Origin: Actinomycetota bacterium
GTDB taxonomy: Bacteria > Actinomycetota > Acidimicrobiia > Spongiisociales > UBA11373
Assembly: GCA_030688105.1 (NCBI GenBank)
Contig: JAUYIV010000204.1
Location: forward strand, 1 to 24,872
Length of the DNA stretch: 24,872 nucleotides
Direction: 5' to 3'
Every line of letters begins with the position of its first letter. Position 1 is the stretch's first letter. A program made the translations under genes and the position numbers. This document shows positions 5,460 to 17,190 of the stretch, in pieces. The notes under the pieces are model-generated. The model had not been told where the DNA came from. It saw only the letters and a list, made by a program, of their open reading frames with translations, and did no database searches.

Positions 5460-5493
5460 GCCTCCAGCCTCCAGCCTCCAGCCTCCAGCAAGA
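5460..5493 (+). repeat. Heptamer array (GCCTCCA)x4 ending in GCAAGA
   Basis: Read directly: gcctcca x4 (5460-5487) followed by gcaaga (5488-5493). Confidence 0.95.
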
Positions 5494-5502
5494 ACAGATC
5501 CC

Positions 5503-5522
5503 GCCGCCCGTCGCCCGCAAGA
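5503..5522 (+). repeat. Short heptamer array GCCGCCC-GTCGCCC ending in GCAAGA
   Basis: Read directly; same register relative to GCAAGA as the neighbouring arrays. Confidence 0.75.
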
Positions 5523-5528
5523 AGGCCC

Positions 5529-5548
5529 GCCACCCGCCTCCGGCAAGA
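5529..5548 (+). repeat. Short heptamer array GCCACCC-GCCTCCG ending in GCAAGA
   Basis: 5526-5548 matches 8429-8451 at 22 of 23 positions. Confidence 0.8.
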
Positions 5549-5563
5549 GCGGATCCATCTCTT

Positions 5564-5604
5564 TCTTGCCCATTGCTCATTGCCCATTGCCCATTGCCCA
5601 TTGC
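5564..5604 (-). repeat. Heptamer array (GCAATGR)x5 ending in GCAAGA
   Basis: Plus strand reads tcttgc ccattgc tcattgc ccattgc ccattgc ccattgc; degenerate 7-nt periodicity continues to about 5627. Confidence 0.95.
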
Positions 5605-5623
5605 CCTATTCCGTATTGCTTCT

Positions 5624-5632
5624 TGGTAGCGT
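5624..5632 (+). promoter_or_regulatory. Candidate extended -10 (TGG-TAGCGT) for the dehydratase gene
   Basis: TGn-TANNNT 8 nt before the GTG at 5641; no Shine-Dalgarno sequence. Confidence 0.5.
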
Positions 5633-5640
5633 CGCCCTTC

Positions 5641-14391: not shown

Positions 14392-14493
14392 GGGTATTTC
14401 TCCTTCCGGTCGATTCGGTGGGAACCGCCGGCCGGTGACCCACACGCTGAGGAAGAAACTATTCGCTGCCGCGTTCTGTTCCGAAAGAGGAGG

Positions 14494-14512
14494 TGCGGCC
14501 GAATAGGCCGCA
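14494..14512. other. 7-bp perfect hairpin TGCGGCC-gaata-GGCCGCA
   Basis: Read directly in the permease-to-binding-protein intergenic region; function unknown. Confidence 0.45.
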
Positions 14513-14521
14513 GATCCGGTC

Positions 14522-14572
14522 GCCTTCCTCCCCCGTGGAGCGGGGGAGGAAGGCCCGAAGGGTCGGAGGGGG
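14522..14572. repeat. REP-like palindromic element: 14-bp perfect stem plus CCGAAGG mini-hairpin and G-run
   Basis: GCCTTCCTCCCCCG-tggag-CGGGGGAGGAAGGC (14522-14554) followed by CCGAAGGGTCGGAGGGGG; single copy in this window. Confidence 0.65.
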
Positions 14573-14640
14573 TCCAGGGACCCAGGCGACACCGCGATGA
14601 GGCGTCAGCCGAAGAGCCATGGACAAAGCTCGCGGTGCGC

Positions 14641-15369
14641 TCAGACCGCCACCGGCGGGACGACATCGGCCCGGCGACGGCGGCTGATGCCTGCAGGCAC
14701 TACGAACCGTTCGAGTGCCGAGAAGCCGATTTCGGTGAGTATCGAGAGCACCGCGACCAAGATGGCGCCGGCCACGAGTTGGAGCCTGTCCTGGATGGCG
14801 AGCCCGTCGACGATGAACCGGCCGTATCCGCCGTAGCCCACCAGGGCGCCCAGCGTCGCCGTCGCCACCACTTGAACCGCCGTCACCCTGATCCCGGTGA
14901 GGATCACCGGCGAGGCGATCGGCATCTCGACGTCGAGGACGAGACGGCGTTCGGTGATCCCCATGCCCCGGGCGGCTTCCACCACGTCGGCGTCGACACC
15001 GCGGATCCCGGCGTAGGTGTTCGTGAAGATCGGCGGCAAGGCGAGCAGGAACAAGGCGATGAATGTGGGAGCAAACCCGAGCCCGCTGTCGATCAGAGGG
15101 GTCGAGCGTGCCAGCCAGATCGTGAAGGGAAGCGCCAGGGCGATGATCCCGAAGGAGGGCAGGGCGCGCCCGATGTTGATCACGGAGACGGCCAGCAGCC
15201 CGCCGCGTCCGGTGTGACCCAGCCACCCGGCGAGCGGAAGGGCCACGGCCATGGCGGCGATGAGGGCCGCCCCCGAAACCCGCAGGTGCTCACCGGTGCG
15301 CGCCAGCCACCCGGTTTCGCCGCTCCAGTTCTCTCCAAACCACTGCAGGAGGTCGCCGAGAAACTCCAT
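14641..15369 (-). CDS. Osmoprotectant ABC transporter permease (242 aa)
   Basis: INIGRALPS, ALPPIFTNTY, EAA loop EAARGMG, ATATLGALVGYGGYG; ATG 15369 in a TGATG overlap. Confidence 0.93.
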   Translation of the reverse strand: MEFLGDLLQWFGENWSGETGWLARTGEHLRVSGAALIAAMAVALPLAGWLGHTGRGGLLAVSVINIGRALPSFGIIALALPFTIWLARSTPLIDSGLGFAPTFIALFLLALPPIFTNTYAGIRGVDADVVEAARGMGITERRLVLDVEMPIASPVILTGIRVTAVQVVATATLGALVGYGGYGRFIVDGLAIQDRLQLVAGAILVAVLSILTEIGFSALERFVVPAGISRRRRADVVPPVAV

Positions 15370-16031
15370 CAGGAGGCCGCGGTTCGCTTGGCCGTCCATG
15401 GTGTGAGGAGCCGCTCGACGAGCACGAGCACGAGATCGACGGCGACGGCGAGGATGACCGAAAGCGCGGTCCCGAGGACGATCTCGGTGTTGAAGAACCG
15501 ATTAAGGCCCTGGAGGATGAAGAATCCGACGCCACCCTGGCCGATCAGGGCGGTGATCGTGACGAGGCCGATCGTGGTGACGGCGGCGATACGGACCCCG
15601 GCCAGGATCACGGGCAGGGCCAGTGGCAGCTCGATCTCGAGGAACAGGCGCCGGGACCCGTATCCCATGCCCAGGGCGGCTTCCCGGACCGCCGGATCGA
15701 CGCCCTGGATCCCGGCGACGATGTTTCTGATCAGGATGAGCAGGGTGTAGGAGACGAGCCCGATCTCGGCGCTGAGGACGGTGAATCCGGTGATCGGCAC
15801 CAAAAATGCGAACAGGGCGAGCGATGGGATCGTGTAGAGCACGCCGGTCAGCCAGGTGATCGGGGGATAGGTGCGGGGGAAGCGCAGCCCGATGAGCGCC
15901 AGCGCCATCGAGATGACGAACCCCACGCCGAGGGCGATCCCGGTGAGCACGAGGTGCTCGGAGACCTTCTCCCAGATGAGGCCCAGGTGGTCGAAGACCC
16001 AATCCCACCGAAAGAAGGGCGCCGCGATCAC
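15369..16031 (-). CDS. Osmoprotectant ABC transporter permease (220 aa)
   Basis: LYTIPSLALF, EAALGMG, IELPLALPVILAGVRIA; GTG 16031 overlaps the ATPase stop. Confidence 0.93.
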   Translation of the reverse strand: MIAAPFFRWDWVFDHLGLIWEKVSEHLVLTGIALGVGFVISMALALIGLRFPRTYPPITWLTGVLYTIPSLALFAFLVPITGFTVLSAEIGLVSYTLLILIRNIVAGIQGVDPAVREAALGMGYGSRRLFLEIELPLALPVILAGVRIAAVTTIGLVTITALIGQGGVGFFILQGLNRFFNTEIVLGTALSVILAVAVDLVLVLVERLLTPWTAKRTAAS

Positions 16032-17131
16032 TTGGCCAGCTCCCGGCTGATCCCCTCGGCGGTGATGGTGCCGACGAAACGCCCTCCGTCGAACACGGGA
16101 GCCACCCGGGTGCGGCTGGTGATGATCGTGTCGAGGGCCTCGCGGAGCGATGCGTCGAGGCTGACCCTGGCCTCGAACGGCTTGGGGTCGATGTGGGCCA
16201 GTGAGTCTCCGTCGAGGTCGGAAGCCCAGGCCCACCCGACAAGCTCTTTGCCGTCGAGGATCCCGAACCAGTCGACCCCGTAGCGGTCCATGCAGGCCCG
16301 GGCGTCCCGGGCGGTCGCAGATCGATCGACCATCGGGCCGTCCTCCAGGGGCACCTCGCCGACGGGGATCAGCGAAAGGCGCTTGATGCCCCGGTGCGAG
16401 CCGAGGAAAGCCTTCACGAACGCATTGGCCGGATCACGCAGGATCACTGCCGGTGGGGCGTACTGCTCCACGATGCCGCCGATGTTCAGGATGGCCACCC
16501 GGTCGCCCAGCTTGATCGCCTCGTCGATGTCGTGGGTCACGAACACGATGGTCTTGTGCACCCGGCGCTGCAGGTCGAGGAGCTCGTCCTGGAGCCGGCC
16601 CCGGACGATCGGATCGACCGCGCCGAAGGGCTCGTCCATGAGCATCACCGGCGGGTCCGCGGCCAGGGCGCGGGCGACGCCGGCGCGCTGGCGCTGCCCG
16701 CCGGACAGCTCCCGCGGGTAGCGGTTGCGCATTCCCGGCTCGAGGTCGACCAGGCGGATCAGCTCCCCGACCCGGTCGTCGATGCGAGTTCGCTCCCATC
16801 CGAGAAGACGGGGGACGGTGGCGATGTTCTCCGCGATCGTCCGGTGGGGGAAGAGGCCGATCTGCTGGATGACGTAGCCGACCCGGCGGCGCAGCTCGTG
16901 AGCCGGGATCGCCATGATGTCTTCGCCGGCCACCGTTATCCGACCCGAGGTGGGCTCCACGAGCCGGTTGATCATCTTGAGCGTGGTCGTCTTGCCGCAC
17001 CCGGAGGGGCCGACGAGCACCACGATCTCGCCTTCGGCGACGTCGAGGGACAGCTGGTGCACGGCGGGGCCCGAGCCACCAGGGAACACCTTGGTGACGT
17101 TCTCGAGCCGGATCATGGGCCGGTCGGTCAC
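16028..17131 (-). CDS. Osmoprotectant ABC transporter ATP-binding protein with CBS-like C-terminus (about 367 aa)
   Basis: Walker A GPSGCGKTT, GYVIQQIGLFPH, LSGGQ, MDEPF, FVTHD; start GTG 17131 or ATG 17116. Confidence 0.95.
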   Translation of the reverse strand: MTDRPMIRLENVTKVFPGGSGPAVHQLSLDVAEGEIVVLVGPSGCGKTTTLKMINRLVEPTSGRITVAGEDIMAIPAHELRRRVGYVIQQIGLFPHRTIAENIATVPRLLGWERTRIDDRVGELIRLVDLEPGMRNRYPRELSGGQRQRAGVARALAADPPVMLMDEPFGAVDPIVRGRLQDELLDLQRRVHKTIVFVTHDIDEAIKLGDRVAILNIGGIVEQYAPPAVILRDPANAFVKAFLGSHRGIKRLSLIPVGEVPLEDGPMVDRSATARDARACMDRYGVDWFGILDGKELVGWAWASDLDGDSLAHIDPKPFEARVSLDASLREALDTIITSRTRVAPVFDGGRFVGTITAEGISRELAK

Positions 17132-17156
17132 CGCGTCGGTCCTGCCTCGGAGGTGA

Positions 17157-17190
17157 TCTTGCTGGAGGCTGGAGGCTGGCGGCTGGTCGC
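17157..17190 (-). repeat. Heptamer array GCGACCA-GCCGCCA-GCCTCCA-GCCTCCA ending in GCAAGA
   Basis: Plus strand tcttgc tggaggc tggaggc tggcggc tggtcgc; between the metK stop and the ABC ATPase start. Confidence 0.92.

Follow-up and report, generated by a model that had tools for sequence, protein, structure and literature searches.

Heptamer arrays with one polar end in an actinobacterial genome, probable inverted arms of small cassettes carrying a PF05635 gene

Tandem heptamers have been known in cyanobacteria since 1990 and are the commonest long simple repeats in many bacteria. Published explanations for them are polymerase slippage and quadruplex formation. We analysed the heptamer arrays of a 24,872 nt stretch of DNA (the window), which is the whole of contig C363 (JAUYIV010000204.1, 24.9 kb) of an Actinomycetota metagenome-assembled genome (MAG; class Acidimicrobiia; GCA_030688105.1, here G000; 2.19 Mb in 421 contigs, 68% G+C). 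An earlier note on this DNA, made from its letters alone, had drawn attention to arrays of different units that all end in the motif GCAAGA (the anchor). Our results suggest that these arrays are probably inverted arms that belong to small selfish cassettes with a gene for a four-helix-bundle protein of family PF05635, most of which have since lost the gene.

Several kinds of heptamer repeat have been described. The long simple sequence repeats (LSSR) of Mrazek et al. (2007), the short tandemly repeated repetitive sequences (STRR) of cyanobacteria and the TAACTGA heptamer simple repeats of the Beggiatoaceae resemble the arrays here in their excess of tandem heptamers, their scattered lineages and their mostly intergenic position, as summarised in PMC4679880. 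In that summary they are free-standing and are explained by slippage or regulator binding, with no polar end, pairing rule or gene mentioned. The GGGAATC and GGGGA(C/T)T repeats of Xanthomonas and Nostoc are also intergenic, with 2 to about 26 units and about four preferred; they lie near the end of the upstream gene, are rare between divergent genes and in each genome form 70-75 inverted pairs in convergent arrangement (Rehm et al. 2015, PMC4692102). The arrays here share that genomic distribution and the convergent inverted pairs. However, the Xanthomonas work dealt with one unit type, read as a quadruplex former, and reported no shared terminal motif or gene link (PMC4692102), whereas here there are many unit families, several of which do not form quadruplexes, and one class of end. 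Like other heptamer simple sequence repeats (SSRs), the arrays have exact 7 nt units, are non-coding, vary in unit number and occur as convergent inverted pairs.

The second relevant system is the intervening sequence (IVS) of 23S rRNA. In Coxiella burnetii this is a selfish element, with an S23p open reading frame between terminal inverted repeats that form a stem of about 28 bp, and it is excised by RNase III (PMC4990558). The cassettes described here resemble the 23S rRNA IVS of Coxiella burnetii and Leptospira (PMC4990558) in having an open reading frame of about 120 codons for a four-helix bundle between terminal inverted repeats, and their proteins match the IVS family PF05635 at E 1e-35. 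Unlike the 23S rRNA IVS, they stand between ordinary genes, their arms are tandem heptamers with locus-specific units, and 2.2 Mb here hold nine gene copies together with hundreds of gene-less derivatives. We found no publication joining heptamer repeats with PF05635 or the IVS-protein family. The case is a variant that links two known kinds, heptamer repeats and IVS elements. What is new in it is one class of polar inner boundary across units and genera, a strict head-to-head rule and the many gene-less derivatives in a small actinobacterial genome.

A profile search of 31 relatives gave nine PF05635 matches in G000, the most of any, one or two in each congener, one in G005 and five in G007; none was found in G004, G006 or G010. 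One G000 copy, checked as protein, matched PF05635 at E 2.5e-35 and TIGR02436 ('four helix bundle protein') at E 5e-34. The family is Avd-like, Avd being an accessory protein of diversity-generating retroelements. Inverted arrays were present on both sides of all seven G000 matches that have both flanks on their contig, with exact inverted matches of 11-24 nt, compared with tracts on both sides in 67 of 1629 background genes (4%), a comparison weakened by the slightly different thresholds used for the two sets. The gene at C123:1580 has (GCCTCCC)3-GCCACCG-GCAATACAGAA on one side and the exact mirror image of this sequence on the other. In the eighth match, at C123:5566, the start codon comes about 90 nt past (GCCTCCA)4-GCAAGA, the same module as that at 5460-5493 of the window. 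The arm units differ by locus (GCCTCCC, GCCTCCA, GTTGCCC, CAGATNT, GACCGCT), and all are among the commonest gene-less families. Every copy inspected lies between protein-coding genes, not in helix 25 or 45 of 23S rRNA. Four of the nine matches are damaged (C65:13147-13461, C78:5029-5329, C201:4385-4609 and C123:5566-5814): one has an in-frame TAG, one is split over two frames and two are partial.

The association extends beyond this genome. Nearly all of the 12 PF05635 loci inspected in relatives had arrays, nine of them on both sides by mask, and exact inverted flank matches were found at most; one G001 copy is flanked by CAAGA-type arrays. In Xanthomonas phaseoli, a Luteimonas, Moorena and Egbenema, too, inverted heptamer arrays bracket PF05635 genes, and the arms in X. 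phaseoli are the GGGAAT-type repeat of the literature. Heptamers thus bracket one specific small gene in Actinobacteria, Gammaproteobacteria and Cyanobacteria alike. In a prospective check, G007, with its five matches, had 12 period-7 arrays in 40 kb, while G010, with no match, had none in 40 kb by Tandem Repeats Finder (TRF) and none in 80 kb by our own detector. The nearest solved structure to the G000 protein is XCC0516 of Xanthomonas campestris pv. campestris (PDB 2GSC), and the description of the GGGAATC heptamer repeats comes from this species. In the Xanthomonadales, GCTCTT(G/A)C, a sequence similar to the TCTTGC form of the anchor, often stands before (GATTCCC)n arrays (loci L188, L215, L164 and L230; Xanthomonas and Luteimonas). 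A common flank on GATTCCC arrays across phyla was considered and rejected: there was a weak excess of CTCTT on one side (9 against 2, all taxa).

The polar end itself is clear in the window and across the genome. The window has 11 GCAAGA sites, seven at array ends and four elsewhere; direct reading, TRF and a pattern search agreed on all seven arrays, as first described. Two to five in-register heptamer units stand before each of the seven anchors, whose GC carries the period on. Genome-wide, with arrays oriented by their C-rich strand, AAGA directly follows the 3' break of 26 arrays out of 217 (as GC|AAGA in 23), against four on the 5' side and about 0.3 expected. It is by far the most frequent tetramer past the array break, at one end only, and GCAAGA is the most frequent hexamer at array ends. 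The 21 nt upstream of GCAAGA are periodic in 78 of 788 cases and the 21 nt downstream in 11. Matching heptamers precede 141 GCAAGA sites, 131 of them intergenic. Arrays are attached to 136 of the 225 non-coding sites (60%), and the remaining 89 equal the median of hexamers of the same composition. GCAAGA was therefore rejected as a free-standing binding site, as there is no enrichment away from arrays.

The base before the anchor is biased towards G or C and the base after it towards A or G, with flat composition beyond +1. Contigs from three metagenomes carry the array and anchor of 5460-5493 and diverge directly past 5493. Both observations uphold the original claim that nothing beyond the anchor is conserved. 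The outer (5') boundary of the arrays is fuzzy and not conserved. A second conserved motif or a target-site duplication at this end was rejected, as we saw only a weak purine enrichment, which comes partly from tandem modules.

Unit families prefer distinct but related ends (GCAAGA, GCAGGA, GCCGGA, GCCAGA and CGACAGA), and the array ends generalise to one class, GC|MRGA. The same class closes arrays in G005, a different genus of the same family, whose units (CAACGCT, CCAGCTA, TAACAGC, AATTAGC) are unrelated to those of G000: the ends there were GC|CAGA 11 times, GC|AAGA four times and GC|AGGA twice, 8.4-fold over background. The argument of the earlier note that slippage alone does not explain a common end is borne out by this, and by the restriction of the GCAAGA excess to arrays.

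The arrays are numerous. Our strict detector found 222 arrays of period 7 in the whole genome, compared with 12 of period 6 and none of periods 8-11, and in the TRF output period 7 had 833 rows, period 6 had 151 and period 8 had 86. The genome-wide scan suggested earlier thus found both an excess of period 7 and a one-sided AAGA end. Heptamer-periodic DNA makes up 14.9 of the 199.5 kb of intergenic sequence (7.5%). There are about 147 unit types, ten of which account for nearly half of the arrays. GCCTCCAGCAAGA, a unit plus anchor of the 5460-5493 type, occurs 21 times in the 2.19 Mb, where 0.1 copies are expected. GCCTCCC, GTCGCCC and GTTGCCC have a G3 tract per unit on the opposite strand, and GCCTCCA, AATCAAG, CATCTGA, CGCAATA and GCAATGG do not. 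Arrays lie at 54 of the 842 contig ends (6.4%), although they occupy 0.93% of the genome, which helps explain the fragmented assembly; a practical consequence is that heptamer arrays break short-read assemblies.

The arrangement of neighbouring arrays shows what the polar end is. In 179 adjacent pairs a C-rich array was followed by a G-rich one 39 times and the reverse order never occurred. CAAGA and TCTTG within 80 nt of each other were convergent 607 times and divergent 58 times, with spacing peaks at 9, 16, 23, 30 nt and so on. TCTTG lay within 60 nt downstream in 37 of 133 anchored arrays, and upstream in two. The polar end is the inner, loop-side boundary of an inverted array pair, and C/G-skewed arrays stand head to head, never tail to tail. 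An intact example in G005 forms a perfect hairpin, with the arrays as the stem and GCAAGA-loop-TCTTGC as the apex (z -8.3). Two structural readings of the anchor were rejected. As the 5' half of a universal hairpin it fails, since downstream pairing was seen at 36 of 136 anchors (26%) against 15% in shuffles, and the mosaics of the window are unstructured. A strand preference of the CAAGA hairpin at the RNA level through T-G wobble asymmetry was discarded because orientation to genes is mixed (three sense, six antisense).

The arrays are real and they change. Near-identical sequence is present in the runs of at least four independent studies (soil, groundwater and sediment), one of them with a copy-number variant, which counters the assembly artefact that the earlier note had named as an alternative. 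The variant, one extra GCTGGAG unit (+7 nt) at 6723 in the array 6720..6746, comes from one metagenome's contig and is copy-number heterogeneity of the kind that the note proposed to look for. Two congeners, G001 and G002 (91.6% identity over 155 kb), have retained arrays at orthologous sites, with length differences in multiples of 7 nt and substituted units; the anchors are also retained where they can be aligned. G000 is about 75% identical to these two in genes and has no arrays in common with them. Aligning orthologous intergenic regions, another of the proposed checks, gave an array-free site: where G000 has the 141-nt mosaic at 6610-6750, both congeners have a spacer of 13 nt. One subfamily has a non-periodic core of 18 nt, AAGACCAGAGAAGTCTTG, between CAAGA-type and TCTTG-type arrays. 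This core is found in 17 copies at unlinked loci here and in none of 12 relatives, three congeners included. Copying has therefore occurred; something copies AAGACCAGAGAAGTCTTG-type sequences, and slippage cannot. An exact 20-mer of array plus anchor in a Saprospiraceae MAG was set aside as a chance match, apparently inside a gene.

These results suggest the following picture. A full cassette would consist of a heptamer array, an inner boundary of the form GC+MRGA (mostly GCAAGA here), a leader of about 45-85 nt with a TTGAC-like -35 box at several loci, a gene some 120 codons long whose product belongs to the '23S rRNA intervening-sequence protein' family (PF05635/TIGR02436, Avd-like), a mirror boundary and an inverted array. 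This anatomy would be that of the 23S rRNA IVS elements, placed between ordinary genes. Most copies would have lost the gene, leaving two arrays that face each other across a short loop, and further decay would leave a single array with its inner boundary. The arms appear to outlast the decaying gene, as reported for the Coxiella IVS open reading frame. The window would hold gene-less or half remnants only. It seems likely that the gene-less arrays descend from, or were copied like, gene-bearing cassettes, that unit number changes by replication slippage and that the anchor is kept because it is part of the portion of the element that is copied or recognised.

We also consider, tentatively, that the PF05635 protein might be the trans-acting partner, recognising the 7-nt-periodic arms and the GC|MRGA boundary and promoting copying or maintenance. 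If true, this would be a new kind of selfish element, and the STRR, GGGAATC and LSSR heptamers of cyanobacteria, Xanthomonas, actinobacteria and others would be its gene-less derivatives. The original prediction had been right that the window encodes no candidate enzyme: it has no PF05635 match, and the candidates are on other contigs.

Several points weigh against the cassette explanation, besides the unequal thresholds already mentioned. Neither of the window's two repeat mosaics folds better than its shuffled versions (z +0.2 and +0.8), only 21 of the 179 adjacent pairs still have a reverse-complement 9-mer in common, and most array pairs in this genome are no longer hairpins. The seven arrays of the window are linked to cassettes by family resemblance, so their assignment is putative, with no gene-bearing copy in the window. 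Among the G000 cassettes the exact GCAAGA boundary occurs just once, at C123:5566; the far side of C201 carries TCTTGC, and the inner boundaries of the others differ. Copy number tracks array density loosely, as G005 has one PF05635 gene yet about 200 arrays per Mb. We know of no nuclease, recombinase or polymerase activity in PF05635 proteins, and hence of no mechanism for movement. Finally, the gene calls (2310 genes, 88% coding) come from a home-made caller, the genome is a fragmented MAG that is 88% complete, and the relatives are a partial sample.

The alternative that needs no element and no protein is that these are ordinary SSRs, made by a polymerase prone to 7-nt slippage, with the in-register GC as microhomology and the A-rich end as the place where slippage stops. 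Polymerase slippage has been proposed as the cause of heptamers, the most common long simple repeats of several bacterial groups (Mrazek 2007, as reported in PMC4679880). The clean multiples of 7 in the length differences, the fuzzy 5' boundary, as for decaying repeats, and the indifference of solitary arrays to the direction of transcription (41 sense against 32 antisense, p 0.35) would all follow. Slippage does not account for a few units recurring at dozens of unlinked loci, for one end having the same motif class across unit families and genera, for the absence of tail-to-tail C/G-skewed arrays, for an 18-nt non-periodic core amplified 17-fold in one lineage, or for inverted arrays at seven of seven two-flank PF05635 matches set against the 4% background. 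This explanation is already strained and seems unlikely. Selected cis elements are also rather improbable: the arrays would then be terminators, Rho loading sites, mRNA-stabilising hairpins or G-quadruplex/i-motif switches, and the PF05635 gene would merely sit inside one type. Their placement fits such a role, with heptamer-periodic DNA making up 12.2% of convergent, 6.7-8.4% of co-directional and 4.5% of divergent intergenic sequence, 70 of 176 sense arrays beginning within 10 nt of a stop codon, and orthologous sites that still have their arrays at 8% divergence. On one strand the main units have a GGG tract every 7 nt, like the quadruplex-forming GGGAATC repeats of Xanthomonas (PMC4692102). 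Yet the same gradient over intergenic types is that of tolerated selfish repeats such as repetitive extragenic palindromic (REP) sequences, arrays also occur in divergent promoter regions, including that of the window, and many unit families (AATCAAG, CATCTGA, CGCAATA) cannot form quadruplexes. Congeners with the same genes have no arrays at the orthologous sites, and the pairing downstream of the anchor, given above, exceeds shuffles by little while the window mosaics are unstructured. The solitary anchored arrays have no preferred orientation to flanking genes, and a directional terminator or Rho-loading module was rejected because the 41 sense and 32 antisense arrays are those of co-directional regions.

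Movement by a conventional transposase, with the PF05635 gene as a passenger of repeats like REP sequences, bacterial interspersed mosaic elements (BIMEs) or MITEs (miniature inverted-repeat transposable elements), is very unlikely. As REP, BIMEs and REP doublets (REPINs) are characterised in the material of PMC2817692 and PMC3116915 on which we draw, they too are short extragenic inverted doublets and mosaics, amplified by lineage and tolerated at gene ends. Unlike them, the arrays here come with no REP-associated tyrosine transposase (RAYT) and no GTAG-type head, their arms are tandem heptamers and the associated gene is a different one. MITEs have conserved outer inverted repeats, target-site duplications and a cognate transposase; here no target-site duplication or conserved outer end was seen, and no tested transposase family fits the distribution of the arrays. 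The Y1 transposase (RAYT, PF01797) was not found in any of the five array-bearing genomes (G000, G001, G002, G003 and G005), while its control matched in six of 14 genomes, and DDE_Tnp_1, TnpB-type and IS256-type transposases were each absent from the same five. Matches to rve (not in G003 or G005) and to IS110-type transposases (not in G002 or G003) each occur in three of the five; the single IS110-family gene of G000, C143:1411-2505, is on a 2.6 kb contig without heptamer arrays. The search for IS91-type Y2 enzymes gave no match and is uninformative, as its control also matched nowhere. The least credible account, in our judgement barely so, is that of enzyme-made repeats, with a telomerase-like or primase-like activity making heptamers at one fixed site. 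The strict period and the fixed motif at one end only are what it would give, but the four genomes of the genus had no reverse transcriptase match, dozens of units in one genome are impossible from a single template, the fixed end is not free but lies on the inside of an inverted pair, and orthologous arrays differ by internal unit changes. The original prediction had offered two trans-acting origins. Of these, the best fit is the non-autonomous mobile element with one fixed end, which would be the inner arm boundary; site-specific repeat synthesis does not stand, given the missing reverse transcriptase in the genus, the missing HUH/RAYT enzymes in the five array-bearing genomes and length changes that are plain multiples of 7 nt. 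Of the gene classes that it had listed to look for beside the arrays, the four-helix-bundle class was found, in the form of bracketed PF05635 genes, and reverse transcriptases and HUH/RAYT enzymes, over these same genomes, were not.

The cassette explanation matters because three properties of the arrays, the polar shared end, the strict head-to-head rule and lineage-specific copying, are not given by slippage. The link to PF05635 provides a testable origin for bacterial heptamer repeats, which have long been unexplained. Binding of the protein to the arms, cutting by RNase III and the change of arrays on loss of the gene are all open to experiment, and Xanthomonas offers both genetics and the crystal structure of a homologue.

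The window arrays, located by direct reading, TRF and pattern search, are listed in the table.

Table. Heptamer arrays and related units in the window, in order of position
Feature	Position	Strand	Located by or remark
(GCCTCCA)x4 at 5460-5487 with anchor GCAAGA at 5488-5493	5460..5493	+	first of three plus-strand modules, divergent intergenic region
GCCGCCC GTCGCCC with GCAAGA at 5517-5522	5503..5522	+	sequence reading, pattern search
GCCACCC GCCTCCG with GCAAGA at 5543-5548	5529..5548	+	sequence reading, pattern search
(GCAATGG)x5, one variant, terminating GCAAGA at 5564-5569	5564..5604	-	sequence reading, TRF, pattern search
GCCGCCC (GTCGCCC)x2 GTCG at 6609-6633, then (ARTCAAG)x4 at 6634-6661, terminating TCAAGA at 6657-6662	6609..6662	+	sequence reading, TRF
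Degenerate CAAGAG-type units	6675..6699	-	sequence reading; TRF period-10 row 6679-6699
(GCCTCCA)x3 terminating GCAAGA at 6720-6725	6720..6746	-	sequence reading, TRF, pattern search
GCCCCC GCCTCCC GCCACCC GCCTCCA with GCAAGA at 8446-8451	8419..8451	+	sequence reading, TRF, pattern search
GCGACCA GCCGCCA (GCCTCCA)x2 terminating GCAAGA at 17157-17162	17157..17190	-	sequence reading, TRF, pattern search

The minus-strand GCAATGG array stands opposite the third plus-strand module across a 15-nt spacer, and a near-identical spacer is present on contig C179. In the array at 6609-6662 the unit changes from GYCGCCC to ARTCAAG, so that CAAGA itself is repeated every 7 nt; the same order, a C-rich array followed by xCAAGAR units, is found at 21 loci in the genome. 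The degenerate minus-strand units beyond it are the decayed partner arm of 6634-6662, and taken as a whole this region has ceased to form a hairpin (z +0.2).

Exact 27-nt inverted copies of (GCCTCCA)3-GCAAGA, at 5467-5493 and 6720-6746, flank a dehydratase gene (5641-6609). The gene was considered as their passenger and this was rejected: two congeners keep it in place, with the 13-nt spacer downstream and no arrays. The GCCTCCA bracket is therefore no gene cassette; its two copies belong to one repeat family and are independent of each other. A 117-codon open frame at 5276-5629 (+) spans the entire repeat mosaic there, and no unit has a stop in any frame. Long spurious open reading frames are therefore to be expected in the annotation of such regions.

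No Rfam family, rRNA included, scored above threshold in the window, and at 5400-6800 and 14440-14660 there were only chance-level matches. Between two minus-strand genes, at 14494-14625 (+), lies a copy of a second, larger dispersed repeat with the core GTCAGCCGAAGAGCC. This core has 71 matches in the genome at up to two mismatches, about 55 of them intergenic, with about 100 nt of GC-rich hairpins before it. The copy at 14494-14625 has folding z-scores of -4.7 (plus) and -5.5 (minus), no Rfam match and a tenfold depth peak in metagenome contigs. Elsewhere two GTCAGCCGAAGAGCC cores enclose a GCCTCCC array and a CATCTGA array. A 30-nt tandem repeat of 2.1 copies lies at 14229-14291, inside a minus-strand gene; one of its copies is missing in contigs from two metagenomes, an in-frame length polymorphism of 10 residues.

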